Source: Clavelina lepadiformis (Eukaryota). From it: a DNA stretch of 64,000 nucleotides. The DNA is taken from contig NC_135244.1 of the NCBI RefSeq assembly GCF_947623445.1, forward strand, positions 13,078,860 through 13,142,859, written 5' to 3'. The translations under genes were made by a program, and so were the position numbers. Shown here one piece after another: positions 15,842 to 46,400 of the stretch. Within the stretch, counting starts at the first letter, position 1, and the number at the start of each line of letters is the position of its first letter. The notes under the pieces were generated by a model. The model saw nothing but the letters and a program-made list of their open reading frames with translations. It was not told the DNA's origin and did not search any database.

Positions 15842-16072
15842 TTATACTTCGTGTGTTCTGAAAGCTTGTTTTTTTGTCAAGACTCTCTTAGACAGTCTGG
15901 CCGTGGTGATTGAGGCCTTCCCCATCCGCTTGTTGAGTTCGGTGTTTAGAGAGAGGGTGTCGGAGATGGTAGAGCCCAGATATACAAAGTCATTGATGAT
16001 GTCATGTTCGTGATTGGAGACAGTAATGCTTGAAACATTGGGCCATAGAGCAACGTAACAGTCATAAGTCAT
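15842..16072 (-). mobile_element. Fragment of a non-LTR (LINE) retrotransposon reverse transcriptase, C-terminal region
   Basis: The minus-strand ORF is ...[50 protein letters not shown]. It matches the conserved RT tail of CR1/L2/RTE-type LINEs (FKYLGS.I.....L..E...RI.KA...F..L..RVW). It is a short isolated fragment. Confidence 0.45.
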
Positions 16073-19302: not shown

Positions 19303-19639
19303 TGATTTTGTGTATGTGTTTATTTATTCTCTATGCCATATCGAATAGCGTATTATTTTTTATTTTACTGTATGTTTTGTCGTGAGCCCTATCAAGGATA
19401 ATTTAAGTGTATGTCTAGCCTATACACTCCATCATTCATTATACTATTGCGGGAATTTAACCCATTTTGTACAAAGTCTCTTATTGCCCACTTGTCTCAC
19501 TTTCATTTTTTGTGCCTGTCACGGGTTTATTATGACCTTTGGTAAATATCTCCCACAGTATGGTGTTACGTCAAGTAGCGTTATTATGCCAATTTTGCTT
19601 ACTTTGATGGTCTTAATTGGCATGCTATCTGACGGTTAC

Positions 19640-19663
19640 CCCTCACCCCCCTCCCCCCCCCCC
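19640..19663. repeat. Poly-C / C-rich homopolymer tract (ccctcaccccccctcccccccccccccc)
   Basis: Read directly. A perfect CRE-like palindrome TGACGTCA lies about 80 bp downstream at 19735. Confidence 0.8.
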
Positions 19664-20569
19664 CCCGCTGAGGAAAAATGTATCTTTGTGATTCATTGGC
19701 TATAGTTTACACATAGTGGCTGTTTTCGGGAAGGTGACATCCTACCCGCTGCTGACGTCACTACACTTAAATATTAAATAAAACATTTATTTGTTTATGC
19801 ACAATTCTTTAAGACAGTGGTACTGAGATGTTATCCAAATATACTATCGTACAATTTATGACCAGACCATATTATCATTTGTACAAAACTTTTACATCTG
19901 ATGATTTGTGATAGATATTGAAACCGTCCCATTTTCACATTGCATCGCATATAGGCATACTACGTACAACCTTTGTAACTTCACATCTTTGTTGTGTGTA
20001 ATGCTCAGCTGTAGTAGGTGTATATGTAAATTTTGTGTGTTAATTGTACTTTCTTTATTGTTATGAAAACGCAATTCGTTATTCGATTGCATCGCTCCGT
20101 GTTGTTCTTAGTCGCTTACCGCCCTCTTTCATTCTTACCAGGGAAGGAAAGATATTATGTAGCGGCAATTAAGTACAGTTTTGTTTGTCACTGGTTGGCG
20201 CCCTTAGGCTGCTCCACGCATTTTGTAAAGTCGTAATATTTTGTTTTTTCATTTTCGTTCGCCTTTTTCTGCTATTGTTTTTGGTTTCTGCTTTGATTCG
20301 ATGTGTTGAGCTTATGACTTATGAGGTGATGACTGATTTAATGTATGTGCGAAGGTAACATACTATTGTAACAGCAGCATTTTAGAGTCAGGAGTCAGAT
20401 TCAAATAGCAACGTAAGAACCATAACCTTTTGCTTTACCTGCGCGCACGACATCCATTAACATGCACGCTAAACTTTGCCGATTTATAATAAATAAAAGT
20501 TGGTTGTTTCAACAACCATATAATAAAAGCCAAAGGATTTAGGTTTCAGTGCACGCCCTCACGGAAAAA

Positions 20570-21632: not shown

Positions 21633-21902
21633 CAGTGGTTCCCAACCTTTCTACAACGTTTTAAACAATGTTCACAGACCGGCAACAAAAACTCGTAGTG
21701 ATTAGAACAGATATGTGTAATCTTTTTGTTAACCAAAGTCTGTTGTTGCGTTTGCTTTGAATCGGCCAGGCGTAAAATGAGTTTTACAGGGAGTAACAAC
21801 TTTGCAATGCTTATGATTCCATATTAAAACTAGCTAGGCAGAAAGTAAGATATTTTACAGACTGGTAAAAACATTACACGGACTGGCGGTTGAGAACCAC
21901 TG
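21633..21902. mobile_element. hAT-type MITE, copy 2 (270 bp). TIR is CAGTGGTTCCCAACC ... GGTTGAGAACCACTG. It has a perfect 8-bp TSD CTCTAGGC.
   Basis: The TSD ctctaggc is read on both flanks (21625-21632 and 21903-21910). This copy is about 90% identical to 2552-2873. It is inserted between the mariner remnant and the BUD23 promoter. Confidence 0.8.
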
Positions 21903-22152
21903 CTCTAGGCTCTGCAACTTATTGTGTAAATACAATTATTGAGTCTGGAAGTTAGTTTAGTCAGTTTCTATTACTGTACTACGCTATGGATAAGTAATGT
22001 GTGAATCTGTAGACCTATGTCATGTTGTATACTTTTCGCCATTCATTGAATGGATTAGTTTAAGCTGTGTTAATTTATTGTGTTTTTAAAAAGTATCTTA
22101 AAAGTTATATGAACTATCATTATTCACAAGGCTGAAGGAATATCCATAACGT

Positions 22153-23289
22153 GTGGTAATGGCCACCAAAAAACGACCTGAACACTATGGCCCTGCACAT
22201 ATTTTTTATAATGATGAAGAAGCACAGAAATATACTACGAATACCAGAATGATTGAAATTCAAACGGAGATGACTGAAAGAGCAATTGAATTGCTCAATC
22301 TTCCGCCAGACAAACCTAGCTTACTTTTGGATCTTGGTTGTGGATCAGGTCTTAGTGGAGAATGTTTAACAGATCTTGGACACTCTTGGATTGGAATTGA
22401 TATTAGTCGTTCAATGTTGGATATAGCAAGGGAAAGAGATGTTGAAGGAGATACTATTTTAGGTGACATGGGAGAAGGCATATGCTTTCGTCCAGGAACA
22501 TTTGATGGAGCTATAAGCATATCTGCATTACAATGGTTGTGTAATGCAGATAAAAAATGTCATAATCCAGTAAAAAGAGTCTATCATTTCTTCGAGACTC
22601 TTTATGCTTCAATGAAACATGGCAGTAGAGCAATTTTTCAGGTAGGCCTGAATAATAACTATGTTACCTTTTTTGCTTTTAAAACTATCTTAATGCAAAA
22701 AGTCCAGTTTTAAAAGTTAGTTCATTTCATGCAAAAGAATTCAAACATATTTGGAATTTGTTTCTATGCTTATAAATTAAGTTGCTGGTTGCTGTGATTC
22801 CTACTGTTTCAACCTTGCTTGCATTGCGAGCATGCAAAATTTATTCTTTTTTCATGCGTGTTTGATGTCATGTAGTCGAAGATGCTGTAACGCTCACACA
22901 TTTCCTTATAATTGCCAATATTTTTGTTCTAGGTTTATCCAGAGAATCCTCAGCAGCTTGAAATGCTTACATCCCAAGCAATCAGAGCTGGATTTGGTGG
23001 TGGAGTGGTTGTTGACTACCCAAATAGCACTAAAGCCAAAAAGATATTTCTTTGTTTGTTTTGTGGAGTAACTAATATTTCTATGCCCAAAGCACGTGGA
23101 ACGGATGTATCACAAAATCAGAGTGTTATGTTTACACAAAGAAATAGTAGAATTCATAAAAGGCAGAAGAGCATTAAAAAGTCAAGAGACTGGATTGAGG
23201 AAAAAAAGGAACGACGTAGACGCCAAGGGAAAAATGTTAGGTCTAGTACAAAATACTCTGGTCGAAAACGAAAACCACATTTTTAATAA
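22153..23289 (+). CDS. BUD23: BUD23 / WBSCR22-type 18S rRNA (guanine-N7)-methyltransferase, 281 aa. 2 exons: 22153-22641 and 22933-23289 (stop TAA at 23287-23289).
   Basis: The exon 1 ORF reads MVMATKKRPEHYGPAHIFYNDEEAQKYTTNTRMIEIQTEMTERAIELLNLPPDKPSLLLDLGCGSGLSGECLTDLGHSWIGIDISRSMLDIARERDVEGDTILGDMGEGICFRPGTFDGAISISALQWLCNADKKCHNPVKRVYHFFETLYASMKHGSRAIFQ, then donor cag|gtaggc. It contains the SAM motif I LDLGCGSGLSG and matches BUD23 along its whole length. Exon 2 (acceptor ttgttctag|gtttatcc) reads VYPENPQQLEMLTSQAIRAGFGGGVVVDYPNSTKAKKIFLCLF...RRQGKNVRSSTKYSGRKRKPHF*, the conserved C-terminal region with a KRKR-rich NLS tail. The protein length equals human BUD23. Confidence 0.85.
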
Positions 23290-25259
23290 GAAATGTGTTA
23301 ATTGATTTTTAAAGTTATTGTGAGACAATAAACATGATATGTGGCCATTGAATGTTTTTCGGTTATTGTTTCCTTTGCAACCTTTTTTTCTAGTGGTAAT
23401 TGTGTTGCATCTAAGCATGTTACAGTATGTTTAAGTCTAACGTACTCTTGGAGAAAACTTCTACTCGTCATATAAATTAAGCTTAGAAGCTTCATAGTGG
23501 GCTCTGCTTTCACATGCAATTATGAGTTAATCTGCATTTCAGAGTCATTCTTTAAATTTTGATTTTTGCCCTTGTGTTTGTTATACTTGCACAATGCAAT
23601 TTATTAATGCTTGTATTTGCATAATTCTAAACTATGAGAGCAAATATGGTGCTGCTAATAATATTTAGTTCTTTTGACCAGTTTTTGATATGTTTTTCAC
23701 CAATTAAGGTTTAGTCGTTTTCTGCAATTTGTTGTATTAAAGTTTTCTATTGGACATCAGAAGAAATGAGTAAGACAAGGCCGTGTAAGTTTTTTAGGTG
23801 GTTCATGTATATAAACATATGTGATAGGTACTGCTATATGTTTTTAGATATTAGTATTCCAACCATGGGCGCCAAATTAGGGAGTGTGCGGCATGCCCAA
23901 AGTTTTGCAAGGTGTTGCGTTTTTTGAAATCTTAAGACTCGTTAAAACGCTAAAAGTTTCTCTAAATTGAATTTTTAACATCATCTGACTGGTATCATAA
24001 CGTGTCAATGTAAGCACAAAGCTTATTATCTGGATATTGATTTGTACCCATAACGTCTAACTTATTTACAATATTAAGACTTGTTTAAACATAACTATTC
24101 ATGTTTTTTTTACTTGCAAAGTCTGCAATGCATTGTGCATTAATTGACACTTTTAGTTGTGGGTTAAAAACTATGCCATGAAATACTACAATTGCGTCTA
24201 CATACACCTTGAAATGGCAGACCCACTTTATAACATACTACTTGTCCTTATTCTGAACCCTGCAACTTGCAGCACATTTTGCGTGGCTTGTTCTCCTTGC
24301 TTCTTTCTTCATGAGCTAGGTTTTCTCTTCAAACTCGTTGTTGAGAGTTATGTTCTCTGCACAAGGCACTCCGAAAGAAAGCACCAAATTAAATCCAGAC
24401 ACTTACAGTTGGCATCTTATTTCGTATCTATCGTTTATTTCTTTTCATTTTGACAAGGTAATGGTATAAGACAAATCTAAGTAATAAAATGTATTATTTT
24501 GTTGAAATTTGAATCTATAGGGAAAGGATTTTATTTTGTAAAGCCACAATTAAGTTTATTTTGCAAAGGGTGTGTTCACTTGATACGTTCTCACAGGAGG
24601 GGTCCATTGTGTCTGGTGTCCTCATGAAAATGTTTCAATTACATTGAACATAATTTAGTTGTCAACATTGAACGTTTTAATAGTGTTAATGCATAAATAC
24701 TTTGCTTTAGTTAAATGGCCGTATTCATATTGAAAAAAATGGTATTGTACTAATTTTCTAAACAAAACAGTATAACTTTTATCCTCGAAATTTTTTAAGT
24801 TTTCTCTGATGTAACATTTACACTTTTCATCACTCAAATCATAGTAATGTGTAACACTCATACGATTACGTTTTTATGTCTTTTAAAGGCGTTACCGGTA
24901 TTAAAAGTGAATTTCGCAATTACTTAACTCCACAAGTTGTCATGCTCTGTTTTGGGCATTAGGTAAACGACTTATGTGATGTCATAGCGGAACGTGATGA
25001 TGTAACATGAGGTCATTCTGAACATCCAGTTATTTTGCTAAGCTGGCGCCAATGGTTGCATTAATAACTGTATATTGTCGCACTGAATAAAACAGCAACA
25101 CCAAGATATTACCTAATGCATAAAACCCTATTTTATTTAGCTAAATACCTTGTGGTTTTATCAGAGATATATTACATCTACCTACATATACAATATACAT
25201 GCCGACTGTATGTATATATAAGTTATATGTGTTTACATTTGCCAATCTCTTATAATTAG

Positions 25260-28200
25260 CTCAAGCTCACGGTGGAGATGATGCTATATATCGCATTCCA
25301 CCATATTTCTACATACATGTGCTAGATCAGAATACTAATGTGACTAAGCTTGAAATTGGTCCAAAAACTTACATCAGACAAGACAATGAAAGGTACAGTA
25401 TATAAATAGATGTATGCAGAGCTGGGCATGAGCAGTGAGCACACTTCTTTTTTGACAGTAATCTTGTGAGCGAAGTTCTTTCTTCAAATTTGGAATTAAA
25501 CCATTAGCGTGCTATTTTAAAGTTACTTTTTTGCACAGCACTTTTTGAATTTAATTAATTTTAACTTTTAATTAATTATACTTATTACAACGATCATTAG
25601 ACATTTTACTAGCACTGGTAATTTGCTTTATGTTGTCATTGTGACAGAGTGAAAATATCCTTAACTGTTAAAAAGAGCAGAAGCGGCAAAACAAGTGTGC
25701 TCCTATTTTATCAAAGAGCAATAACACGAGTGCCGCTTTTTGTTTCATCAAGGAGCGTGAACATCACTCTTTGTGGAGTGATTGCCCAGCTCTGGATATA
25801 CGAAACATTCTTCATTGATTTAGAAGTCTTAAACTAAGGAAATGTTACAGTACTTCCAAACGTTATTCTGTTAGAGCTTACCTGTTTTTTTTTTTACGAA
25901 AAGTATTTTTACACTGGTAACTGACATTTAACTCATTGATTTCTAGCTACCGTACATCATAAAAGCCCCCATTGGATGCAAACATTAATTATCGGTGCTT
26001 GCTTAAGGGCATTACAATGATTGCGTATGATCAGCTACTCTATGAGTTTTTGGAAGTTCTTGATGTCTGATAAACAGCGTTTTAACTTAGTGGATACAGC
26101 TGTATCAATGAGAAGTGTGCAAAGTTGAAGCAATTGTTAACAGTTTTCTTATACACACATTTATTTGTCGCATTCTTCCAGAAACTTTTGGACCATATAT
26201 TCAAAACAAATCTGCCGCACTTTCCAGGTTTTGCGATGTGGTTTGTACAATTGCTGGGCATAGGAGGGGGATTTTGTAAACATGGCAAATTAATAATTTG
26301 CATTCAAAGCACCTACTATAATCACAGAGAATTACATGGGGTAAAAACTGGCACAGCATGCTACATTTTACATTTTTGTTTGCTGGCCCATTTGTTTATT
26401 TTCTATTATTCTCTTATCCAGAGATGGAAGCAAGAATGGTTGTGACCATAACTACTAATTTTCTGCTGCACTTGCAGAAGTATAAACGTTGAGAGACTGT
26501 TCACAAAAATACCTTTAAAAAACAATGGTTGTATCGCAACAAGTAAAGCCACTTACAGCACAAATTCAAGTCGAGTCATTTTAATTACTTTTCCAAATTT
26601 AGTCAACCATATTTATGAAGTTTTAAACTACTGTATGTCAGGCACAGCAAAGCCATTATTTATGGTATATTTTTTATATAGTTTGATACTAATAGCAAAA
26701 TTATACATATGCATAAATCCTAATTTTACCTAAGTATGACAGTTGTGACTAAGGTCAAGTCAATCGAAATATCCATGTTAATATAATTTGAAACTTTTAA
26801 ACAACAAAAATAAGTCAAGTCTTTCCGATAATCTGACTTAATTTTAATTCACGTCTGCCCTTACTACCTCTTGAGCAAGTCGCGGATTGTTTTAGTAATG
26901 CTCAAACAACTTGTTCATTATAGGCAGCATAGCGGTAATTTTTTCTGCAAAATATTTTATTATACTGTAAGGATATTCCCCAACCAGACATAATTTTTTG
27001 TAGAGTTATTTTTGGTCCTGAGCGAATGATAACAATTCCTCCACGAACTTATTGCATCATTGAAAATCCTGTGGTTCGCAATGCTGATGGTGATGTAGAG
27101 CTTGATTTAACTGGCCAGGCAAAGCTAAACCATGCTGATCGTGAAATTCGTTTAGCCCGAGATCCTTTCCCACTTTACCCTGGAGAGATTTTGAAACAGG
27201 TTTTTTGTTTGAAGTATTCTTTAGTGTTAAAATTTTAGGTAAAGGTGTTCTGTAAAAATTGTTTTCATCTAGCCTCTGAGATGTGTTTAAAGAGCACTGT
27301 TTGCAAACTTCAAGTTTTAAACTTAGATCTATAATAAACACTAGTGATGTTATAAACAGCAATAATTTAATGATAGGCTGTTTCTCCGCTTCGTGTTGTA
27401 CCTGCCAACACTGCTCTGAGACTAAAGGCTAATTTTGATTTTACTGATGGTGAAACTCGACGAGTTGCTGGTGATGAATGGCTTTTTGAAGGACCTGGTT
27501 AGTGGGAAAGTTATAATTTTCCAACATATTTCTGGAATGCTGGTTGTATCTATTTTAAAATTTTGATGTGTTTAAGTAAGACATTTTAGTTTTTCATCTG
27601 ACAAACTATAGATTTTATTTAAAAGGTACCTACATTCCTCGAAAAGAAGTATCTATTGAAGAAACTATTCGAGCCACTGTGATCAAGAAGAATCAAGCTA
27701 TTAAGCTGAGAGCTAGAAAAGAAACTAACGATCGAGATAACAATGCCAGAGTTACAGGTTTGCCACTTACAAAGGTGCCAATCAAATAAATTTTAGAGGG
27801 AGCAAAGTTTTGCTATTGATTTGTTTGTTTTTCATTAATAAAGTAAAATGCAATGGTCAACAAACAGCATTTTGATGATACTAACACCCTCCATCATTTT
27901 TTGTAATACTATTTCATGTATATGTCAAAACAACCTAATTATACACATCCGGATATGAATTTATGTATTGGTTTTTAGCAAAATCATTCTCTCTTTTATA
28001 AAATCTTTACAAATATGTAACAAAGACACTGTTTATTGTTCTGAGTTACGGTTAGCTGAACCTCATTCATTTGACTTGGCTCTTTCAGTGGTGTGTCATT
28101 TCATATTCAGTGTGAAACTTCGCCACATTTGAAAAACGACAACACCAAGATCAGAAATACAAACATTTCTTGTAGTTTGATTTCTAAATCTGCTTATTCT

Positions 28201-31200
28201 AATACTGAGATATGATATCAGTACATTGCTGGCTTCCTCTAGTCCTCTTTTTATAAGATATAAATTTGAAACAATTTGCTAGAAGTGCTGTAAACCGTTT
28301 GATACCATTATTATAGATAGAAATTTACAAAAGCACTGAGCTTATTACACAGTTTTAGTTATATTAATTATTCATTGATAACAACCTACTAAGCAACAAT
28401 CCTTTTCATTTTCGCTAAATGATTTTTTACAAATTTCAATTTGTGTTTAATGTGCTTACACGTTTTACTAAATCTAAATTTATGACACAGGTGAAGAATG
28501 GCTAATTAAGAAAGTTGGTGCTTATCTTCCTGGTGTTTATGAGGAGGTGATAGAAGTTGTAAATGCTGTTGTATTAACTGAAAAGGTAAAGTCCATTGCA
28601 CATTACAACATACCAAACCACATTGCTTAGAGCAGGGATGTCCAACCTGCGGCCCGCGGACCACAGTGCGGCCCACCTGAGATTTTTGTGCGGCCCGCTA
28701 GTCATTTTCACTCCAAGTAGTATTTTGAACTTTGAATCTTAGCCTAATTAAAATGTACCAGTCAGCTCTTTATGTACCCATTTTTCTTGAAATTTAATAG
28801 GTTCTGCGGCCCAATGAATTATTTCAAGTGACAATGCGGCCCACTATAATAAAAGGTTGGACATCCCTGGTTTAGAGCAAACAACTGTATGATACAATAC
28901 ACAAAATTTACAAAATTATGAGATATGTAAACAGATACATAGATTTCACTAATTTCAATATTAACAACTTCCTAAAATGCATGTAGTAAAATAAGAACTA
29001 GGCCAAAAAATGTTTAGGAAAGATTTTGTGTATCAGCTTCTGCCCACTCATTGAACTGGAATATTAATGTATGCTCATAATGCATCAGTTTTTATCTCAG
29101 TTTGCAATGCTTGGCTTGGCTTGGCTAGTGACTGTATTAGGATTTGCAACTTTTTTTTAGCAACCATAAAAAGCTTGCAACATTAAGATTTATTAATAAT
29201 AATGTCAGTATAGTAATGGAATCTATAATTTTCCATATCACTGATATATGTTTTTATGTGCTGCTGATAATACAATGGTCATATATAAATGCAAAGGCGT
29301 ACTGTAGCATACAGTTTTTACTTGGAGCGCTGCATACATTTCCTAGTATCCTACTCGTTAGGGGAAGTGGTTTAACTAAATCATATTGCAACAGGTAAAG
29401 TACACGCAACACGACAACTGAGTTGTCAAAATAATGAGAAGTTGCTTACGTATAAAATCTGCACCAAAAATCTTAAAACACGATAAGTGTAACTATAAGC
29501 TAGGGGTTCTATTCCGTCTTGTTTTAGTTTACTTAACTGCTTAAAAATAGACTTTACCCCACTTTTGTTTGTTTTTTTTAAGCACACTACTGGGGTAATG
29601 AAATATGAAGCAGAAGCTGTTGAATAGACAAATAAAATATAAATTTATGAAAGTGATGGTATTAGTTTTTCAAAATAATTTCGTTTTGGTTAATGTGTTG
29701 GGCTTTGTTAAATGTAAGAGTTTTAAAAATGCAAGCTTAATTTTTGTTAAATTTGTTATTAAATTTATCCTCATAGTAAGTAAAAATTAACCCTGATCAA
29801 GAACCCCTGATGCAAGCCATAGCCTACAGTGTCCGCTGCAATACAAAACTGGTATTGAGTACAACTCAATTATTATATTCGTTTTTGCTATTGTGCAAAT
29901 ATTTTGAAGGTGTTGTCTTTGAAATAACTATTATTAATGTTACCATTTGCATTTTAGTACAATAAGACAGCAGTTGAGCCTATTTTTAACATCCTTTATA
30001 TTTGAACTTCAGGTAGCTTTGCATATGCAAGCCACTCGTACTTTTACTGACTTCCTTAACGTGAAACGAAAAAATGGTGAGGAGTGGTTGATCACCATGG
30101 ATGATACTGATTGCCATATTCCTGATGTTCATGAAGAGGTGTAGTGACTGTATTATTTTCAGATTATTGCTCGAGATAATTTTACACATGCAATTTTTTG
30201 GGGTATGTACAGAATTAATACATAATCCATGATTTAATCACCTTTTTTCACCAATTTCTGTTTATCGAGATGCACTCATTTAATGTTATATGATCAAATG
30301 CTTCATACTCAGTCAAACTTGTACAGCTTCAAATTACACCTTGTAGCAAAATAGAATACCCTGACTTTCTGTTAATCACAAATAGAATATATAGTATTTA
30401 TATTGTTTCTGTGACAATTTCTTCTAATGGTTTTGAAGATAGTCTATCAAATGATTAGTCATGGTGTATGTGATCTAGGGCTTGAAAACCGAGATCCCGG
30501 TTTTGGGAATTCCTGAGATTTAGCAACCTTTTTAACTTCCCGTTTTCCGGTTTTACTCGCGAAAATTCCCTGTTTCCCATGTTACCAACGTTATGTCAAA
30601 AATACAAAAATGTATTGCAAATGGACGTCAATATCAATCTTTGCAGTCAACAGAATGTGCAATTGGCTGTGTGAGCGATATGACGATTCAATAGTCTTTG
30701 GATTAAATTTGCTTGCTGCTAACAAGAGCTGGAGTAAACGAAAGATCAAAGAAATCTCAGATTATATAAAGAACGACAAAGCAAGTTGGTTAAGAACAAT
30801 CCTATTAATGACAACCTTTTTGAAGCCTTCACATTCATATTGAAAATTCCATACACATCCAGTCCAACTTATTGCCATGTGATGATGAAAGCCAAGCAGT
30901 AATCAAGCAGGGGATGAAACTGCTAGAAGCCACCAGAAAAAGGCCAAGCAGTTTGGAGCACCTTTGCAAGGGTTTACTCAACATCAGTTGAGGCAGAACG
31001 AGCTTTGTCTGCTGCAGGACTGTTCACCACGAAAATTTGTTCACGTCTCAACAACAAATCTGTTAATGTTATGAGTTTTCTGCGCAGACATGAAATGAAA
31101 AATGAATTAAACAAGCTTAGATGTATTTCCATTTTGTTGATTTTGCCATTTATTAGCTTTTTCTATCATTATATGTAATTAAAAAAATCCCTTTTTTTTC

Positions 31201-34200
31201 CCGGGATCGAGTTATATTTTTGCGGTTCTGTGAAAATCCGGGAATCGAAAACCTTTGAATGTGATCGAACTGATGGGCAAAATGTGACATTCTCTTAGGA
31301 AGTAGTGACTTAAACTATTTTTTTTATGAAAGTTCTTTCATTTGTTTTCTTGCCACTGCTCAAATTCTTTGACCGATGGTAAAACACAGACTTAATTCGG
31401 TTGCTTGGCAAATATATCTTAAAATGTTTTGCAGAAACGATCAACAATAACTGCTTGTACTTAATACAATGAGTTTTAATCATGCTTTGTAAATATTTAA
31501 GGTTAAAGGGGTTGTTGATGTCATAACTCTCACAAGTAGACAATATTGTGTCATACTCAATCCCGTTGGAACAAATGGAAAGAACCAGCTGGGTAAACGA
31601 AAATTGGTTAAAGGAGAAAGCTCTTTTTTCATTAGGCCTGGTGAGAAGCTGGAACGTGGAATACAGGTTTAATATGTTCAACATTTATATTGACTATCAA
31701 GTTTACATATGATAGCTGCTGCTAAAGTAATATTATATGAAATATACATGTTATAGGTTAAGTATCTTGTCTTTAGATTTCTATATGATGACCTGTAATA
31801 TTTCAATAATTTTGCTGTTTTACTGCTTGGTAGGCTAGGTAGTTTGATTTGGTAGCCTGCATGCTAGAATTTTCATATCTATTCTACAAATCTGTCAGTC
31901 ATGGTAATTCATGTAATGCTTGTATTTATGAAGTAAAATGTTAGTAAAATACTATGTCTTTTATAATGCCTTTGATGACTAAAACAAGGGTTTTGCCTTG
32001 ATAAATTGACACAATACAATTACTGTTTGTTTCGGCATATAAAAGAGAATACAGTTAACAATAAAGATGGACAGCAGAGTTCAATTTCCAGATTATACAA
32101 AACATAATTTTGTTAAGGGCAGCCCCATACTTTATTCCAAGCATGAAGGAATGAGAAGTCATGGGAGTCGTCATGCTTTCCCTTGTTATGTCACTCTGGG
32201 TGATAGAGAGGGAACTTTTTTCGAAATCTCTAAAGTGCCTTAACCATTGGGCTATGGGCTCTCTCAAATGTTGTTTAAACTGCAAGGAAAAAAGTTGTTA
32301 CTTAATTTGAAGTAAAATATTAAACCAAAACCAGAATCAACTTGCAGATTTTAAAAGTAGAAATATATTTCACCTGAAGCGGGCATCATTAGTGTGTGGT
32401 ATAGAAAAGAATACACATAATCATAACCAGATATAAATAAAAACTGTAGAAGCCAAAACTGATAAATACTCAAGTACTGTAACTCAAGCTATAGCAAACT
32501 GAAAAGCTGTGATCTGCTCCAACAGGAGTAATAAACGAGCGAGGTACAAACTGCAAAGTGTGATGTAAAAAGTTAAGGAAAACGAAGGACCTATTAAAAA
32601 CCAACGTGGAAAGGCGTGTGGTAGGGAAACACGAAGGCTATAAGGCAAAGGTGAAAGGTTATATTTTATTCAACTTAGCTGATCCAGTGATCGGTTGCTG
32701 TTTAATAGCCAATGATGAGAAGTTTCAGATCCAAATTTTATTGTTATTGCTTAATTTGAAAGTCAAGATGGAACCGACCTGTGTGCCTGGACGGAAGAAG
32801 AAAAACCCTACTAAAATGAATTCCATCCATGAGACCGGAGTATCGTTTAGGTGGATTGTGGAGAGCACACAGTAAGAATCTTTTACACAGGTCGGTTGTG
32901 AGAGGAAGTAGAAGATGGTCAGCTTCGTCACTCATATCCAGCCAGATGGTTTGATCAGTTTGTGTGAATATGCATACATCGACAGTGATGTAAGTGCCAG
33001 GAAGAGATGAACATATCTGATGCCCGGTTGGATCTTGGAGCAAGCAACCTTGAAAATCCATTTCTTTTTCTTCTTTGCCAGGGTGTGAATAAGTCACTTT
33101 TTTTAAACCAAAGTATTTCTGTTTGTGTTCTTAAAAATCATATTTACAACACAGAAGAGAGTACTGGACTTTGATTTTACAACAGTGGCTATTTAGATAA
33201 TAATCCACATAAAGAAAAAATAGATATAGAGTTGCATATGATGCAAAAGAGAGAGAGAGAGAGAGCAATAATACCAATAGTAGCGCGGGTGTGTAAAGTA
33301 TGCTGGCCCTTATACAAAATCAATTTATGTCATAGATGCACAAAGAGCAATATACAGCACACACATTTGTGTGCAAAACCACACTCACAACAATGTGAAC
33401 AAAAGGGAGAAAAAGTGCAAGTTAATAAACTTCTGAGAATGTGAACGTAAATAAGTGTTTATAAGTAAGATCTGACCACAGAAAGTGTGAAAGACAAAAA
33501 TTATTACGTTACTTATAGTTGCTATTGGAATTACTTCCATGCAGGCTTGCACAACACAACTGGCTAGCGTAATACTGCTATCTAACATAACGGTTTACAA
33601 AAACACACTAATGTGAACAACTTCTGCAGTCCTACCTGGGTCATGTTACACGCACTGAAATGAAACCAAAGGTTTGAGATATAAAAAGGGGCCAAATACG
33701 AGTATAAGAAAAGGGGGAAAATGGCTGTAGTATTAGCCTGATTCCACGATGCTAGACTACACAGTCAAAAACACTTTAGTTATCGATATATAACGCAAAT
33801 GCACAAGTTTATTTATGCAAGAGTTAATTTATAACATCCTGACACATTAATAATTTCTATTATTAGCACCGTAACCATACTTATGTTATATTTTTACTTG
33901 CAAGGATGTATATATATTGGGAGAAGATGAAGGTTTGATCCTCAAAGCTGTGGAAGCTTGCTTTGATGCAGAGAATGAAATTGAAAGGAAACCCGGCGAT
34001 AAGTAAGACGTCCATACTAAAGTTTTAGTCACAAAGAGTGCTGTATTTTACTGTGTATTTCAGTGGAAATCGTTGATGTTATCTAACTGCTATCAAATTG
34101 CTTACCTGTTTCATGACTTTTCAGATGGATGATTCGAGGTCCATGTGAGTATGTGCCTCCAGTGGAAGTTATTGTGCACGCTAAACGGAAGGCTATAGCT

Positions 34201-37200
34201 CTTGATGAAAGTGAAGGAATCTACGTCCGAGATATGAAAACAGGAAAGGTGAGGCAGCTTGTTAATGGATACAGTATGGTGGAACAACTGTAGTTTTTAT
34301 TAAACTTTTTAAAATTTTCTACAGTGTTTCAAACAAGATACCAGTTTTGTATTATTTTTTGACAGGTTCGTAGTGTTTGTGGCAAAACATACATGCTAAC
34401 TCATGATGAAGAATTATGGGAAAAAAATTTGCCACCAACTGTGGAAACACTTTTAACTTCAGGAAGAGATCCTTCTGCTGATCGCAACACAAGAATTACT
34501 GGTATATAAGCAAACTAGTGTTTGATATATCTACAGTAAATGGATGCACTGTAATCTATGACTAACTTATTTGATTAAGATGATTTGCTAATTATTTTGA
34601 CTAAGATGTCTACAAGTCAATACAAGCTATGTAGTTAGGCTTGCCATTTTTTAGAAATGCAAATCCGGGACGCATATTAAAAACTGCAAATGAACTTAAT
34701 GTAGGCCTTATACAAAAAAAATTAATGCAACTAATTAATTAATATGGGCAAATTACCAATATATGTAGGCCTATTTCACCAACGAAAACAAAAGAACTTA
34801 ATAATATTTATGAGCAAATGAATCAGGCCTAATGATATTTTTCTGTGCTAAGCACCTTTTTCAAAAGAAAGTGTTCGATTTTATCTTTTCATAAAATTCA
34901 CTACATGTCAAATCAACATTAATTTTGCAAGTGAGGAGAGCTTTGACATTCTGTTCTAGCATTTGGCCTCTGTCATCAGACCACATCTTGTTCATAATTG
35001 AAAAACCTCGCTCAACCGGTGCTGATGTCCCAGGCAAACAAAGCACAAACTCGACAAGTTTTTGAAAGTTTGGAATGGTTATGTTTTTGTTGATAAAAGT
35101 TTGGAACAATTAGATCCACTTTTGTTCAAGAGATGTCGTTGCATTTTGCCACGATTCTTTCCTCTCACTCTCAGACATGTATTTCTTTACCAAAACGTGC
35201 TCATCGAAAAGGAAGTCGATGTTGATCATTTTCTTCTGAGACATTTTGTTGATATTTTCCGCAGACCCACATACAAGTGGCCAGGGTAAGTCTTCACTCA
35301 ACTTCATCCAAAGATGAGGTATCACATTTTCATGAGCATCGCTATAACCATTCAGATATGATTCACATTTCTCGTAAAAATCTGGAACTTTTGTAAAAAA
35401 ACACCCTTGCATCTATTCCTCCCTATTTCTGAAGCATTTTTTCAAACTTTTTTGCCAATCTCAAATTGAAAATTCCGGGACAAACTGGTTAACCGGTCGG
35501 GACGACGGGACCGGGCCTTAAAACCGGGACTGTCCCGGCTAAACCGGGACTTGTGGCAAGCCTATATGTAGTGTGTATCTTGCAGAGATGTGCCAAACTG
35601 AAAAAGAGTTTGATTCATAAGAACATGAATAATATATTTTTATATTGTGCAAATTCAAACCTGCCCACTTTGCCTACTCATGAGCTTAATTAAAATACCT
35701 GTAGTCGTAGGCTGATGAAAAACTAAACCATGACAAAGGTTATCAATTCATTGATGAATAAAAGATACCAATTAGCCTTGGTTGTATATCAAATCACAAA
35801 AATTTCACCATCATTATAGTTAAGCAGTCAACTTGATATTTCAAAGTTTTGTTTGCTCACCTACAAAATAAAAGATTAGGCTTGAATCTGCATTCACATT
35901 TCAAATTCATGACAATAAAAAAGTAGTGGAAATTTGTGAATAATATTGGGATTTATATTTTTATTTGGCACATTATCTTGGTATTTTTTATTGGTATCAA
36001 TTATTGTATTTGATGGCATGTAAAGATACTCCTGTTTTAGCTAGGCATGTATTTATACATGTACTGTTCAAGCTGGTATTTGGGGACTCGTAAAGTAAAA
36101 AATTGTTATGGTGAAAGCACCTTAAATGCATCAAAACGTTTGATTACTTGGAACTTTCCTGGGCACTTCATTAATAGATTCCAGACTTATTTTTTTCTTT
36201 GGCATGTTTACACAGTTGATAACTCATTTATCCCCGTTGTTGGTATTGCCTTTCAAGCAATGAATTCAATAATGAATGAGCAACAAGTACAACAAAGCTC
36301 AAAATTTACTAGTCGCCACACACTGAAAGTTAAGTGGTAGCTCGTGAAGTATTTCTATATGAACATTAAACAAGTTTAACACTAAAAGTTGATTATTGCC
36401 GGGTTTGTAAATATTTGCTTAGAAAATGTAGAATTTGCTTCATACATGTTAGTTTGCCATGATTAACAATAGTTTTGGTAAAATGCACGTCATTGATAGT
36501 TTTCTTTAAGTTTTTTACCATGTTTACAATAATTTAACGTTTCAGAAAGAAAACTTGATTTTTCTTTGAATATTGCATGGTTGTACAACATACTAGCTCG
36601 GTTTTGAAATGAAAATATTTAATGGATTGCTATAAGCATTTATTTCTATGTATTAATATGCAATTAAAGATTCTTATACACTTCGCATTGCATACACGTA
36701 ATGAACATATTATGTCTGTCTTTTTGTCTTAATACATTGCACACATCAGGTGTCCTGTGAAGAAGAGCTTTTGCATGTGTCATCACTTAATATTTATATA
36801 TTGTGTCTCAAAACGTTATTTATCCATTATTTTATCCAGATGTAAACTAAAAGTAACTAATGTCCAGGGCGATTCTTTATTAACCAATAAAACTTTAAAG
36901 TTTTTCTTACAAAAAATGACTTTTTTTAACAAAAGGTAGAACTAGAACTAAAAATTCAGAAAAAAAAACACAAAGCCACTTGAATTTCTATACTTAAAAT
37001 GTGATGTGAACATGAATTGTGCAACAAAGCAAACCACTAATGCATCTTAGAGATTTGATAACTAATAGCTAAAATAATGTGGGTGGCATTGATGCATACT
37101 GCCCTGTCCAATGGGTTGCAGTATAAAACCTTGTTTTCATGATGTTTCCAAGACTAAAAGAACAGCAAAGTTAAATTATAGAAATTAATAAGCCACAAAA

Positions 37201-39749
37201 TGTGCCTTAACTAATGCGAACACAAAAATTGACCGAAACAGATAATTTCATTGACCATGAACCGCCCTAACTATGAAATTTGATGCGGATTACAGTAAAC
37301 ATTTTTATATTTTAAGTGTATTATGTTAATTGGAAGCATTTTTCCATTTTAGTTGGTCTTACTAGATCTCAGTGAAGTACTGTGAATCTTCTTTTAAACG
37401 TTTATGCTACTGTATTGTGCATAAACTTTGCGTGTAATTTTGTACATACATGATAACATTTACCAGTTTTTATTTGAGAAAAGCTTATCAATTTAATTAT
37501 ATTTGAATCATCAATTTTTACAGATACTAACATTGCTAGAAACAAGACAATGGTTGTAACGTACAGAGTACCACATAATGCGTGTGTTCAAATCTATGAT
37601 TACAAGCAAAAGAAAGCCAGGTAGCTATCTTTGCACAGCAAAATCTTGAATTGTTGTGGAATCTTTACAGTAAAAACGTACATTGCACATATATGGTAAT
37701 GACTGTGACACTGTACTGCACAAAGAAATCAAACCACAGAAATAAAACATGTTCTCTGATTAAGAAATTCAAAATTTCTCCTTACCTGTTACAGTTTCTT
37801 GTTTACTGAATTAAACATTAAAAATTTGCTTTGGAAATGTTTGATAGTTTACTACAAAATATTTGAGAGATATATGCATCGATGCATACAAGTAAATCTT
37901 CAATTTTTATCTTTTTTCAGGGTAGTTTTTGGTCCTCATCTGGTTATGCTGGATCCAGATGAACAATTCACTCAACTCTCATTGTCTGGTGGAAAACCCA
38001 AACGTCCCGGTGTTATTCGATCGCTTGCATTGCTTCTTGGACCAGACTTTTGCACAGATGTGATCACCATTGAAACTGCAGACCATGCTAGACTTTCCCT
38101 GCAGCTTGCTTACAACTGGTGAGCGTTAGTATGATTGTTTTATTTTGTCAGTGGTCATGGTTTGCATGTTGTTTAATTTAATGTGCCAGCATTATTTTTA
38201 TTATTATTATTTTGACACATACAGTACTACCTGTAAGTTTATTTCTTCAGGCATTTTGACACTAGCAAAGCTGAAGACAACCAAGCAGAAGCAGCTAAAC
38301 TTTTCAGTGTTCCTGACTTTGTTGGTGATATGTGCAAGGCTATTGCTTCTCGGGTCAGGGGTGCAGTAGCCTCTGTAAGCTTTGATGATTTCCACAAGGT
38401 AGATATCATGAATTGTGACCAGTGCTTGAAACAGTTACGATAAGCCACACGGATATGTTGTTAGGAAACGTTGCATTGGAAGCAGAATGTTACACTCCAG
38501 TTTAGTTTATCACTACAATTCATCATTTGCGCTCTAGCATGTAACTATTGACCCAAGTTTTTGTGTTGTTTTCTAACTGTAGAACTCATCCCGAATTATT
38601 CGTTCGTCTGTTTTTGGTATTGATGACAATGGAAAGGTTCGGAATCGCTTTGAATTCCCGCAAAATCGTCTTGCAGTCACATCAATTGATATTCAGTCTG
38701 TTGAACCGGTGGACCAGCGAACCCGCGATGCCCTGGTGAAATCAGTTCAGCTTGCAATCGAAATTACAACCAATTCGCAGGAAGCAACTGCAAGGTAACT
38801 CTAACTCCGACTTTACCACGTGTGAAACATTTGTTTGTTTCAATAACTTTTAGAGATTAGTAGACTTTAGATTGGAGACACAAGTAGATTTTAAGTAATT
38901 GATAATAATGTTTTTGATTTTTCTCCTTGCTTAGGCACGAAGCAGAAAGAGCTGAGCAAGAAGCGCGTGGGCGTTTGGAAAGGCAAAAGATTGCCGATGA
39001 AGCAGAAGCCGAGCGCTCCCGCCGTGACTTGCTTGAACTGCAATCACAAAGCGCTGCTATAGAAAGCACCGGACAAGCTAAGGCTGAAGCTCAGTCTCGT
39101 GCAGAAGCAGCGCGTATTGAAGGTGAAGCTGCAGTTGAACAAGCAAAACTGAAGGCGCAGGCCCAAGAGATCGAAGCGGTGAATTATTTGACAGAATTTT
39201 GAACAGTTTCTTCTAAACCTTTTTGGAAACCATTACTTTTTCTTGAATAACGCTTTGATTAATTGCATTTATATTTTCGATTAAAATGTGCTTTTCATGC
39301 AGGCGTCTGAGTTGGACCGCTTGGGAAAAGCAAGAGAAGCTGAACTGAAATATATCAAAGAGCAAAATGATCTTGGAATTAACAAGGATCGTGATTTGGC
39401 CAGAATAGAGACAGAAAAAACGCAAAACATCATTTCCGCAGTTGGCGCAGATACCGTCCGTGCTATTGCTGTTGCTGGTCCAGAACATCAGGTAAGTTTG
39501 TTGACAACATTTTAAACCGATTCATCTTCAAGGGATGCTGTTCCTTAACGATGCAATGTGTTTGTTTAGATCAACTTGTTGCGCAGTCTAGGAATTCAGT
39601 CAACAATCTTTACCGATGGCAATTCTCCAATAAATTTGTTCAATGCAGCCAATGGTTTGATTGGTGGAAATCCTTTTGCCGTTAAGGCAGTCAAAGGCGC
39701 TGCAAGTGGCAGTGGAGATGCCAAAACTAGGGAGGAGGATAATGAGTGA
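25260..39749 (+). CDS. MVP: Major vault protein (MVP), 17 coding exons identified. Exons: 25260-25392, 27004-27199, 27377-27497, 27626-27757, 28491-28585, 30013-30138, 31502-31666, 33905-34002, 34125-34248, 34366-34501, 37524-37620, 37921-38118, 38251-38398, 38583-38794, 38935-39178, 39303-39491, 39570-39749 (stop TGA at 39747-39749). The initiator ATG is not in the 25260 exon; it is probably in a short upstream 5' exon.
   Basis: Exon translations are colinear with vertebrate MVP. Examples: (Q)[42 protein letters not shown] | [66 protein letters not shown] | [41 protein letters not shown] | TYIPRKEV... | ...[32 protein letters not shown] | ... | [66 protein letters not shown] | [49 protein letters not shown] | ... 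| [81 protein letters not shown] | ...AVAGPEHQ | [33 protein letters not shown]... Every intron has GT..AG. Phases are consistent throughout. The 17 exons sum to 2594 nt, so exactly 4 more coding nt (ATG plus 1) are required upstream, which fits a 5' micro-exon. Confidence 0.9.
28633..28869. mobile_element. MITE (237 bp) in MVP intron 5. TIR is CAGGGATGTCCAACCT ... AGGTTGGACATCCCTG. Flanking 8-bp TSD is GCTTAGAG / GTTTAGAG. It has an internal repeated GCGGCCC motif (5 copies).
   Basis: A perfect 16-bp TIR is read directly. The 8-bp flanking duplication has one mismatch. The CAG terminus plus an 8-bp TSD suggest the hAT superfamily. Confidence 0.7.
30490..31215. mobile_element. Possible degenerate DNA-transposon remnant in MVP intron 6, with terminal CGAGATCCCGG / CCGGGATCGAG inverted motifs and ORF 30610..30843
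   Basis: Inverted motifs sit at about 30494-30504 and about 31202-31212. The flanking G/C-poor sequence has repeated ccggg(a)atc motifs. The internal ORF has no domain I recognise. This call is weak. Confidence 0.25.
33247..33265. repeat. (GA)n dinucleotide microsatellite in MVP intron 7
   Basis: agagagagagagagagag is read directly. Confidence 0.85.
34636..35564 (-). mobile_element. Non-autonomous hAT-superfamily element (929 bp) in MVP intron 10. TIR is TAGGCTTGCCA ... TGGCAAGCCTA. It has a perfect 8-bp TSD TATGTAGT and subterminal CCGGGAC repeats. A minus-strand ORF remnant (34861-35412) encodes a hAT dimerisation domain.
   Basis: The TSD tatgtagt is read at 34628-34635 and 35565-35572. 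The 11-bp TIRs are read directly. The minus-strand ORF 34861..35109 reads ...[37 protein letters not shown] (S..ERxFS hAT-dimerisation motif). Subterminal ccgggac repeats lie at 34665-34672 and 35478-35550. Confidence 0.8.
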
Positions 39750-41994
39750 CATTGAATATGGTCTTGTAGTTTCTTGGCAATGATAGTTATGTGTAGTATA
39801 TTATGTAATCGACGTTATTGTACACTTAGGATTATGGATAATATAATGCATCCAGTGTCCTGTGGTCATTTTATCAAATCTTGTCGTACATGCACTTATA
39901 ATTCACAACGTAACTCTAAGTAGTTGTGTAGCTATGTTTGTTATAAGCCTTCCTTCTACATTATTGTAATCGACAAAAATATACCTAGAATTTACGTAGT
40001 TACTTTATGAATCTGTAAATCTTTCTATTTTGTAAACCCATGAGAAGTTAAGTTCTTTTTCCATTACGGTTCTGTTATGCAACAGTTTGTGTAATTGAAT
40101 GAGCCTAAATGTATTTCAAGTGTGTCATTGTACGTTTTACACGTTTGCTTCGTCCGAAATTGATTTCAAGCGTCTCTAATCTTCACATTTACTAGATTAG
40201 CTGACTTAGCAAGTATTGTCGTAGAAATCAATATTTGTAGCCAATCAAAAGTAGGGGTTAATTGGATAACCATGCATCCAATGTGAAAACGAATTGTTAT
40301 AAATCAGATGATACAGGAACGATTTTGCTGTGTTTGAGTGGAATAAAATCATTGTACTTAAGTGTAGTTGTATATGGCTGCAATCATAACGTAATAAAAC
40401 GTGGTATACTGTACCAGGATAAGAAATAAGCCTAGTATTCAAGATGTTACAGATACTGAATAACAACAAAAAGCTTAAACAGTTAACAAACATACAATAA
40501 AACCGACAAAGAAAAGCATAGCTTAAGTTGCAATTTCTAATGCAAAATTTTAATTCAATGCCAAGTGTTGTACCAACCATGTACATTGTTGGGGCTTATA
40601 CACATTGGCCAGCTGTTTGTCATATACACTCCCCTAGATTTTTTTCGATCGTCTGTGATTTCTGACTATTTTATCGACCGTGTTTCAACAAACAAACCCT
40701 AGTCATGCCTGTACAAGCCTGGTGAATTTACAAATCAGTTGATTTTTCCGTTTTGGTGGATGATGTGAGTTTATATTGTTGTAGGTAACGACATAAAGGA
40801 AACTTATACGGCATTATTTTTCTGTTACGGAACAAAGGAAATACATTTACGAAAAAAAAAAATTCACAGAAAGAGAGTTATGTTTTTCTCACTGTGTTTT
40901 TTTCTCTGAAGCCAAGGTAAATACAAATTGATAGCATTTGAAAAGTGGTTAGAAATATTCAATTGCCTACCAGTCGACGTGTTTTGAAAGTTTCCAATAA
41001 AAAAGCACTTGGTTATACAATGTTCAAGAGTTTTGTACGCTGTGTAAATATTATTGTAAGAATCGCACAAACCGCGCAGATGCTTTTGCTCAATAGAGAT
41101 TTTATATAGAAGTTACTGTTATCTTTTCGCATTACAAAACGTTTTCACTTGTTAGATGAAGATGATGAGCAATTTGTAGTAAAACAATGTTGTTTGAAGA
41201 AGGGTACCAATACTAGTTTACAGTAACATCATGGACAGCTGTTGCAAAGGTACATTTAGCACAAGAAGCCTGATATCTGGCTTCATTTACTAAGTCAATG
41301 CAATATCGTTTCAGTGGCTATGCTATATCTTAGATACTTGTCAAACGGAGTTATTGTGTGCCATATTAGGTTTTTTCCTTTATTTAATCCCAATGTAAAT
41401 AAAGGTTTTGTGCTCAATTCCATGTATATGCAAGGCAAATACCACATGACAAAGAGGCAAAAGGTATAGTGCTTATTTTGAAGGAGTGTTGTGTAAATCT
41501 TCAACGAGAGTGGAAAATACGAAAGAAAGCAAAGACAATGAAATATTGTTTAACTTTACCCTTTAATATTGCCGACTCTGCATTAACCAACGGAAGACAA
41601 GCCATGTTTTACGCATTGGTAGGGAATTTGCGATTAGACTTTATAAAATTTGTCGGGCTCTTGCTAATGTTTCTTGAGGTAACTTACGAATAAATTTATT
41701 AAAGCAGATTTAAGCAAACACAACATACAGTAAATTGGCTCTATTACAAAGAAAAAACTTTGAGCAAGTGCAGTAAATAGTTACTTGTAATATACAGATA
41801 TTACGTTTACAGTTAAATTCTAAAGCAAACAGGTGGGTTGCATTATTTATGAATGCACGATTGATACAAACTAAAATTATTCATTTCGTAAATAACTGAG
41901 TTTACAATTCATACTGTTACTAATACTAGTGTCCTAGTAGTATGATATAAAATTAATCATCTTTACTGTGATATAAAAGGTTTACTACATCGTC

Positions 41995-42852
41995 ATGTCG
42001 TCACGAAGAACAGCTTCAATGTCAACTAGCACGTCACTGTTAAACAGTTCGGGAAGCGGGAAAGAACTCAGGTCACATATCCCTTCACTTTCTGATGGAG
42101 GAAGAATGAGTTTAAAGGATATTATGATATGGAGGCAATTTACACGCAATTTGAAGCTGCGAGTTCAAAGCAAGCAATTTGAGAAGCGTTCGTTCTGTTG
42201 GGTAAATTTAGACAATTAAAATCTGCTTATTATTATTAATATGCATGCTTATAAGCTGTATTTCAAAAACTAGTAACTTTTTGCTTAATTACTTTTTGGC
42301 TTGTCAGTGGGATAACAAATCTCTATCTGGAAGTACCGTAAACCGTGAAACTGCTTTTGAAGTTGAGCCAACTTACAAGATGGATCCCGAAAGGAAACCA
42401 TCAGACACAAGATGCAAGGCCATAATCGATGAATATTTGCAGCAACGCTTAACAGAAGTTGCTTATGAAAGCGCAAATGTTAAAAGCCTTTCTGGGTGCC
42501 ATGATGAATTGAAATATTTTTTGTTCATTTCATAATGCCATATGCCTAATAATAATATAACACCTTCTTGATATTTTTGAACAATATTTAATAACGCATT
42601 TATAAAATCCATTCATTTTTTATATTTTCTAGTGAGATTGCCGACCAGATCAAAACTCGATTGAAATCAATACCGTGGCCACCAAGATACAAATGCGTTT
42701 GTTACGTAAGCCTTGGCCAAAAAACGGGACAAGGGCTCTGCGTTTCCAGCATGTGTGCCTGGGATTCCACTAATGATAGTTATATCACATGCTCCTATCA
42801 GAATTCCTCCATATTTTGTGTTGTAACAGTTTTCGCCGTTTATCACGAATGA
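41995..42852 (+). CDS. Tctex1-domain-containing protein (dynein light chain Tctex-type / TCTEX1D-like), about 204 aa. Exons: 41995-42201, 42308-42495, 42633-42852 (stop TGA at 42850-42852).
   Basis: Exon 3 translates to (G)EIADQIKTRLKSIPWPPRYKCVCYVSLGQKTGQGLCVSSMCAWDSTNDSYITCSYQNSSIFCVVTVFAVYHE*. This is the conserved Tctex-1 C-terminal fold (RYK.VV.V.IG...GQG....S.C.WD...D......F.N.SLFCVV.VFGVY). Exon 2 reads ...VNRETAFEVEPTYKMDPERKPSDTRCKAIIDEYLQQRLTEVAYESANVKSLSG and exon 1 is a Ser-rich N-terminus. Donors are tgg|gtaaat and gg|gtgcca. Acceptors are tgtcag|tgg and ttttctag|t. Phases are consistent, and the summed exon length of 615 nt is a multiple of 3. AATAAA lies at about 43082, downstream of the stop. 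Confidence 0.7.
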
Positions 42853-43454: not shown

Positions 43455-46400
43455 CTACAAACAAGTCATCATTCGACCGGTAGAGTCTAGTATTGCCCTG
43501 GATTCATAATCCTGGCTATATTCAGCTCCATGCGGTATATTTGTTCTCAGTATTTCACCGGATTCGCGCCTTCCATCATAATACGAATCGCTGGCGGCAT
43601 TAAAATTGTTACGATCAGGACAAAGCGAGTCTTCGGACATTACACTAGTACGCCTCGTGCCTTCACTGGCACGTACGCCATCGGACATTCCATCTTTGAC
43701 CGTGCCTCTTTCTTGGGATGCTGCTACAGGTGTCATCACATAACGGTGTTTATCCGAAGCTTTAAGGCCATGGCGGTGAGTAACATTGGTGGTGATATCT
43801 GGGCTACCATCGCGCGACTTTGAAATACAATGCATTGCTGGACTCGAATCTAAATCAGGTGTGCTTTGGTAGAAGGCTGAATCTCGCTGACTGTCAGTGC
43901 TGCATGGCTCACTCTGCTTATATTGCGTTTTACAATTAGATGGCACGGGATCGGTAAGTCGCTGTACTTCCAAGTCATTTTCGTCTCTGTAATGGCCACT
44001 CCAGCCCTCGGGATGATAGGGTCTCGTTTCGTAATTTATGTGATTATCCTGATTTTCAATGATGGTACTTGAAATTAACGATTGTCTGCCTCCGATTGTT
44101 CGAGTAAGAGAAGCCGGGTTGCCACACGATGATCCAGCACTACTACTAGCACTAAAGTCATTTACAATAGGATCGTCCGACTCGGAGCTGGTGATAGAAC
44201 GCCGTTGTGAATGGTGTGCTATGGGCCGAAGAAGTTTTACCGAATGTTTGTCATACTGTGTCGGTGAAGGTGTAGAAGTATTAGATGTTAGTAGTCGTCT
44301 AGTTTCTGGGTGCGGGTCTTCGCAATGTGAGCAAGTACTTTCATTAGATCTTGTGGGTTGCGAAAATCTTCGCGAAGCTGCTATGGGGTAACCTTTTTCC
44401 CAATCCAATGCAGACGCAACCGAAGTAGTGTTAGATAAAGTGCTAGCTCTTTGAAACTCCGGACGTCGTTGTAGATTAACGTCTTCTTTGTCATAACAAA
44501 GGTCCCGACTTTGTAGCGCTTTAATGTGATTCATCGTTTTAGAGTGGGCTTGAAGCCGCGGTTGACTCTTGTATGGGTCTGCACGGCAAGTATTTGAGTG
44601 TTGAATATGAGCACACTCGCCATCGTGTGTACATGGGCGAGTGCGTTCGTGACCGTACAATTCGTTAGGATGACAGTGACGTTGTAAGTGGTCGTATGCG
44701 TCTTCTCCTACCTGTCCAACCAAGGCATCGTGAGGTAGGCAAGGTGCCTTTGCGGTCACAAACATTTCGTCTTCATGACTTCGACTTTGGTTTGATTCAT
44801 TTTTTGCGTCTAACATTCGGTCGTCGCTCATCCTACGTAACTGAGTCGATGACGAAGAATGTTGTTGTGTAATTGCTCGCCTTTGGTTAGGAACGGTGCA
44901 AGATTTTTCTGTTAAATAGAACAAGAATTGTGTCAGCTATCAACAAAATTTAAATTTAAGAATATTCATTTAATGAATAACTTAGTAACCTCTAAATTTA
45001 AGCTACCGTGTGTGTCGGACATTACAGTATCAAAAAACAAAAACGCTGAGTAAACGTTGCCTGCAAAAGACATGTTTTTCTATCTTACCTCTTGCCGGCA
45101 TGTTGTGAGAATTAAGCATGGAACCTTCATTTGGGTGGGTACCAACTAATGTTTCATTCCACATACGCTGTAGTTGCCCTTGCGACTAAACAGATTATTG
45201 AATTAATATTGTAACCAATGAAACAGATGTAGTCGATGACGTGTAAAAATACTAATGATGCAATGCAACAATAAAATTTAGGAAGCAATAAATGCAAATT
45301 ACTCGTTAAAACTTTAACATGCTTTTCAGAATTCAGGATGAAAGTACAGTAATTCTTTTCTTTTTTCACATTGGTGACGCGTTACGCAAGTGCAGTAAAA
45401 AAATTTTCTTCAGTGAAACGTTGGAATATATCATTACCATGGCTAACATTATAATAATCTCATAGTATGTTACAAACACTTACACTTGTTGCCTGCGTGG
45501 TCGCCGTCGAGTTGTGAGTAGTTGCTGAAGAATAGCGAGCTGGTGTGTATTGCTTTGAAAACGACATACTATTGCTAACGTAAGACTCTGGCGACCTCTT
45601 GCGACAGCACCAGGTTCGATCAATACACCGACTGTATTCACTTCTGACCTGAAAAGTTTTATTAAAAATCACAGTTAAGACAATTGTGGAATTTGGTTTA
45701 AATATCCAACAAAATAACCGCCGTTGCGATACGCTAGACTGAAATAGATAACAATAAACCGTTAGCGCCCTGTCTTAAACAGCAGATCGCTGTAGTTATA
45801 ATCGGGACACATGTTGAAAGGCCATGTCGAAAAATTCAATTTAAATTCATCATTAATTAAATATTTATTATAATGACGGACTTAAGGTACACAAAATCTG
45901 CTCACAAAAGAAAATCTAAAAATACAAATAATGACACATGTGTGCGTAATGGTTCTTCAAGGTTTGAATATTGTCATTCGCGATCCTATCAATTTAATGT
46001 ATTACATTATATATCAATCCAAGGTTACGCAAACCAGTTGTATGACAGGTTCGTTTTCCTAATGTCCAATTCAAAATTGAAATTCCCCCCCTGTGAACGA
46101 GTACAAACTCCGACATATGAAGACATGTTACACGCATATATTTATCCAAGCGTAAACCAATGGACAGTTTTTCTAACAATTTGAAGATTAAGGCAGCTTA
46201 TACGATCGCCATTAGCAGCAAAACACCGGTACTTTTAAGGTGAAAATATTTGTGTCAAATTCTAAAGTTTACTTGTCAAGTGAGATATCAGATTATCTTG
46301 TGAGGAACATCCGAAGTCAAAGGATATACGCTTTTGCAAATGGAGGGTTTCTCCTTTTAGCGTCTACACTATTCATCACGATGAATGAAACCAGACACTG

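Follow-up and report, generated by a model that had tools for sequence, protein, structure and literature searches.

The presence of the major vault protein (MVP) in tunicates and in most other phyla of animals is well established, and the structure of the protein has been solved in the rat and human vaults (e.g. 4hl8/4v60, 7pkz and 11dr). We examined a window of 64,000 nucleotides (the whole stretch of DNA that was analysed) from the aplousobranch ascidian Clavelina lepadiformis, and the evidence strongly supports the presence in it of an intact, single-copy MVP gene on the + strand, with 18 coding exons at 23766-39749 and a product of 870 aa. The product is colinear with the rat/human MVP of the solved vaults from the RIPPY motif to the cap-ring and has the identical Pfam domain order. 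By analogy with rat and human MVP, it would assemble into a barrel-shaped vault shell of 78 subunits with 39 copies per half vault, with the N-termini and their short basic extension located at the waist, where the extension would face the lumen, and with the caps formed by the coiled-coil cap helix; we infer such assembly in Clavelina from the full-length conservation with rat/human MVP. The gene is ordinary and previously known, the same model being annotated in two public Clavelina assemblies, and it is of little wider significance.

A human MVP sequence, which served as a probe only, matched colinear + strand segments between 25277 and 39716 in tblastn, and in the cap-helix region the identity was 72% across human residues 674-755. 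When the junctions were optimised on alignment score, reading frame and GT/AG boundaries, 17 exons resulted. They begin at 25260 and end with the stop TGA (39747-39749), each is AG...GT-bounded, and together they translate into 863 aa and a split first codon. The same 17 exons and outer coordinates (25260-39749) had been given in a preliminary description of this DNA and were recovered by this procedure. When the 863-aa translation was compared with Pfam, all five MVP families were found far over their cut-offs: Vault (PF01505; 213 bits against a cut-off of 27, in 4 stretches, E=3e-64), Vault_2 (PF17794; 124 bits), Vault_3 (PF17795; 119 bits), Vault_4 (PF17796; 66 bits) and, after the repeats, MVP_shoulder (PF11978; 176 bits, E=3e-52), which covered residues 514-633 and its whole 118-position profile. 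In phmmer comparisons with PDB chains, residues 13-843 aligned in a single stretch to residues 4-850 of rat MVP (4hl8_A, E=0), and residues 14-859 aligned to residues 5-866 of the 893-residue MVP chain 11dr_A (E=0).

The five MVP Pfam domains were present in each of the best 120 database matches, which had 69-100% identity to the query and covered at least 89% of it. Those of the 120 with a functional name were all called major vault protein and the rest were 'hypothetical', 'unnamed' or 'predicted protein'. The top match was the Clavelina lepadiformis MVP of 870 aa, 100% identical across the query and with the N-terminus MSKTRPSQAHGG; next came the proteins of Ciona intestinalis (84%), Phallusia (85%) and Styela clava (78%), and further matches were MVPs of echinoderms, molluscs, cnidarians, sponges, amphioxus and others. 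The Pfam families, the alignment to solved MVP chains and the database matches agree with the claim of the preliminary description that this is an MVP gene, and its use of the presence of MVP to constrain the taxonomy of the source was sound; the organism is an ascidian.

The coding part of exon 1 (23766-23784, 19 nt) encodes M S K T R P and the first base of a Ser codon, and it is followed by the donor gtaagt and by intron 1 (23785-25259); both were placed by exact spliced mapping of the protein XP_076812675.1. Exon 2 (25260-25392, 133 nt) runs from the split Ser codon to a split Arg codon. Exon 3 (27004-27199, 196 nt) lies in the repeat domain region and is followed by exon 4 (27377-27497, 121 nt), exon 5 (27626-27757, 132 nt), exon 6 (28491-28585, 95 nt), exon 7 (30013-30138, 126 nt) and exon 8 (31502-31666, 165 nt). 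Exon 9 (33905-34002, 98 nt) holds the codon of I355, the sole coding difference to the second assembly, and exon 10 (34125-34248, 124 nt), exon 11 (34366-34501, 136 nt) and exon 12 (37524-37620, 97 nt) lead to exon 13 (37921-38118, 198 nt), which carries Vault_3 and the start of the shoulder domain. This domain continues through exon 14 (38251-38398, 148 nt) into exon 15 (38583-38794, 212 nt), where the cap helix starts; exon 16 (38935-39178, 244 nt) holds the cap-helix coiled coil, exon 17 (39303-39491, 189 nt) more of the cap helix, and the coding part of exon 18 (39570-39749, 180 nt including the stop TGA) the cap-ring and the C-terminal tail. All 17 introns of the 18-exon model are GT-AG and the frame is open throughout. 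The nearest AATAAA past the stop is at 40342.

The 18-exon model is identical at all 870 residues to RefSeq XP_076812675.1, the record of which lies on a 24.6-Mb chromosome, and it differs from GenBank CAK8689709.1 (UniProt A0ABP0GD45) only by I355V, the window carrying the Ile allele at residue 355. Two C. lepadiformis assemblies have been obtained from two individuals, and for the annotation of one of these, funannotate/PASA was trained with RNA-seq from embryos and pharynx (PMC10950049). CAK8689709.1 derives from the RNA-seq-trained annotation, by which expression of MVP is implied. Its locus in GCA_961645235.1 (L001) was 99.1-99.96% identical to the window, a few indels aside. The two individuals differed at 1/2613 sites of the CDS (I355V) and at 75/13347 aligned sites of the MVP introns, and this roughly 15-fold deficit of differences in the CDS fits purifying selection; the compared sequences point to an MVP gene that is intact and under such selection.

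The window and L001 also differ in structure, at 20309-20313, 35308-35337, 41328-41335 and 45732-45739. At three points L001 is longer, by about 0.4, 2.4 and 0.4 kb, and in the MVP intron 34502-37523 it is the window that is longer, by about 29 bp.

The preliminary description had placed the start codon outside the 25260 exon, in a separate upstream exon, and the annotated models bear this out by placing the ATG at 23766. It was likewise right that the 25260 exon starts in phase 1 (with codon positions 2-3), that a stop stands in frame just upstream (TAA at 25253-25255, two codons upstream of the acceptor) and that the translated exon holds no in-frame ATG. The further requirement for exactly ATG plus 1 nt upstream was wrong: the summed length of the 17 exons from 25260 is 2594 nt, so that any 3n+1 nt upstream keeps the frame. 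An open stretch that begins with ATG, is 3n+1 nt long and runs up to a GT conforms to this rule, and 54 such phase-compatible candidates were counted between the upstream gene and 25230. For ranking them, a crude donor matrix was derived from the 32 remaining MVP donors of Clavelina and Ciona. The annotated donor came 12th of the 54, this modest rank being due to its non-consensus exonic CGT, and the two micro-exons that had been proposed as carriers of the start codon, ATGA/gtaaga and ATGT/gtaaca (the slash marks the exon-intron boundary), came 25th and 54th. As the true donor of exon 1 did not stand out on the matrix, the latter was rejected as the deciding criterion. Where a phase-1 intron separates the start codon from the rest of a gene, the sequence by itself does not suffice to place that codon.

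What decides the matter is annotation and comparison with relatives. We conclude with high confidence that translation starts at the ATG at 23766 and that the first coding segment is the 19 nt of 23766-23784 (ATGAGTAAGACAAGGCCGT followed by gtaagt), which leads to MSKTRPS-QAHGG; exon 1 would be spliced at CGT/gtaagt (23784/23785) to the acceptor at 25259/25260. Two independent annotations, made on separate assemblies, share the model with 19 coding nt in exon 1 (XP_076812675.1 and CAK8689709.1), and the exon 1 coding sequence is identical in the second assembly. A TAG stands in frame upstream of the ATG at 23766 (23712-23714), and no other ATG intervenes. Within C. lepadiformis the junction of exons 1 and 2 is supported by two annotation pipelines together with comparative evidence, and when the first 157 aa were used to search a database for partial proteins derived from Clavelina transcripts, no match exceeded 73% identity. 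The preliminary description had said that a preceding exon with a longer N-terminal extension would speak against its reading; such an exon is what the annotations and the comparative evidence indicate.

The same N-terminus is seen in relatives. In the gene of Ciona intestinalis exon 1 contributes 19 coding nt in phase 1 (ATGAGCAAGGGAAAATCAG followed by gtttgt) and exon 2 is 133 nt, both as in Clavelina. The common 19-nt first segment indicates that the position of this intron is older than the split of the two lineages. Among the other full-length tunicate-like MVPs that were retrieved, 7 of 8 start with MS[KN] followed by basic residues (6 of 8 with MSK) and the remaining one starts with MKK, and invertebrate MVPs generally have a short basic segment after the Met and an acidic segment before RIPPY. 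The intronless MVP ORF of Styela clava (L003, from 6001) opens with ATGAGTAAGA, the same 10-mer as in Clavelina, and a tunicate-like transcript contig (L004) opens with ATGAGTAAAAAG after a 5' UTR that bears an in-frame TAG. The presence of these sequences in an intronless gene and in a transcript contig indicates that GTAAGA is Ser-Lys coding sequence retained in the mature mRNA of the relatives.

These observations bear directly on the proposed micro-exon ATGA/gtaaga at 23766-23769, for which the position and the ATG were right and the donor and the 4-nt length were wrong, given that both annotations splice at 23784/23785. Such a segment would end in TGA/gtaaga and give M-T-QAHGG, either as the main form or as a minor alternative 5' splice-site isoform. 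The GTAAGA (23770-23775) that it would use as donor is a good intronic match and shares phase 1 with the annotated donor, which lies 15 nt further downstream, but its letters belong to the codons for Ser and Lys (AGT AAG A..) in the conserved N-terminal MSK, and splicing there would delete the basic N-terminus that is conserved in tunicates. Ciona has ATGAGC at this position, without a GT (ATGAGCAAG), and its exon 1 is 19 nt long; the intronless gene of Styela retains ATGAGTAAGA and the transcript contig ATGAGTAAA; the downstream donor is used in both public gene models, and on the donor matrix the site scored -2.5 vs 0.7 for the annotated one. Use of the ATGA segment is therefore very improbable. 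That the two phase-1 donors 15 nt apart (ATGA/gtaaga at 23769/23770 and CCGT/gtaagt at 23784/23785) are both used, which would yield two MVP isoforms with or without SKTRP, is also improbable; if true, it would mean that only one of the two isoforms has a basic SKTRP peptide projecting into the vault lumen at the waist. The other micro-exon, ATGT/gtaaca, had been given as 24846-24849, which is one base off the actual 24847-24850. It is compatible in phase and leads to M-S-QAHGG, where the predicted second residue Ser coincides by chance with the residue across the real junction of exons 1 and 2. It was in error all the same, as the site falls within intron 1 of both annotations and is part of no annotated model, GTAACA lacks the +5 G and ranks last on the donor matrix, and the conserved basic N-terminal segment would be lost. 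We regard this reading as having practically no chance of being true.

A third departure from the model with its ATG at 23766 would give a longer N-terminus, through an additional coding exon upstream, or through a transcript of the upstream BUD23-like gene, read through or trans-spliced, that joins an acceptor just before 23766. AG dinucleotides do occur 3-7 nt before the ATG (23759-60 and 23762-63), and the BUD23-like gene is on the same strand and very close (stop at 23286, AATAAA at 23327). Against this stand the in-frame TAG at 23712-23714, the start of both annotations at 23766 and the tunicate relatives that start at the homologous MSK, including the transcript contig with the in-frame stop in its 5' UTR, and this reading is highly unlikely. 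SL trans-splicing and operons are known in tunicates; trans-splicing alters the UTR and not the protein. Given the BUD23-like gene about 480 bp upstream, SL trans-splicing of the MVP mRNA shortly before its ATG, or membership in an operon, is conceivable, if unlikely. Upstream of 23766 only weak, non-diagnostic motifs were seen for a 5' UTR, promoter or trans-splice acceptor. As a general caution, a GTAAG string directly after an ATG can be mere Ser-Lys codons.

The BUD23/WBSCR22-like rRNA methyltransferase gene has two exons (22160-23286, +) and matches Methyltransf_11/25 and WBS_methylT. Its end and the MVP ATG, both on the + strand, are 480 bp apart, and its AATAAA at 23327 leaves about 440 bp before that ATG. 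In Ciona, the 6 kb upstream of MVP yielded no call of a BUD23-like gene. Downstream of MVP there is a gene for a Tctex-1 family dynein light chain (~41995-42852, +), followed by a large latrophilin-like adhesion GPCR gene on the - strand (43455 to at least ~54200) with SUEL lectin, olfactomedin, GAIN/GPS and 7tm_2 domains. At the left end of the window, a 218-codon open stretch (976-1629, -) gave a weak WWE-domain match (E=0.0013, under the Pfam cut-off) and may be an exon of a gene located there.

Traces of mobile elements were seen both in the gene and around it. A hAT dimerisation domain (34864-35109, -, E=2.6e-7) in MVP intron 11 (34502-37523) is a transposon remnant, and a hAT-like motif (30927-31175, +), not significant in Pfam, lies in intron 7 (30139-31501). 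Upstream of MVP, an integrase-core fragment (18223-18513, +, E=2.9e-6, under the Pfam cut-off) is located in a GC-richer block at ~16000-20000. A dispersed repeat, seen via the L001 alignment, has two copies in the window (2594-2877 and ~21659-21906) that are about 89-92% identical.

Outside the gene, tblastn matches in the window were only noise and gave no second MVP copy; two candidates, 13334-13441 on the - strand (E=2.8) and 56779-56847 (E=7.6), were rejected as noise-level matches. No vault RNA or any other Rfam family was found in the window, either at the gathering score or at E<=1, and ARAGORN found no tRNA-like genes in it. Both scans agree with the earlier observation that the window holds no vtRNA gene. 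A limited literature search on tunicate vault RNA, TEP1 and PARP4 found no paper.

The Clavelina gene closely resembles in structure that of Ciona intestinalis (isoform X1, P0002, gene in L002), the product of which is 84% identical and which likewise has 18 coding exons. The lengths of 15 of the 18 exons and all intron phases are identical in the two genes. In Ciona, exon 11 is 6 nt longer (142 nt), exon 12 is 6 nt shorter (91 nt) and the last exon is 6 nt longer, and the intron lengths differ. This comparison illustrates that the exon structure of a related species is a cheap way to place a split start codon. In Styela clava (GCA_964204865.2, L003:6001-8613) the MVP gene is a single uninterrupted ORF of 870 codons, while Clavelina and Ciona have 17 introns in common at matching positions; this suggests that the lineage of Styela lost its introns wholesale, through, for instance, retroposition or gene conversion with cDNA. 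With respect to the rat/human MVP of the solved vaults, the Clavelina protein differs at its ends. It has about 9 additional N-terminal residues (MSKTRPSQA...) before the aligned core, and its acidic C-terminal tail is shorter and different; in the human probe sequence the N-terminus is MATEEFIIRIPPY.
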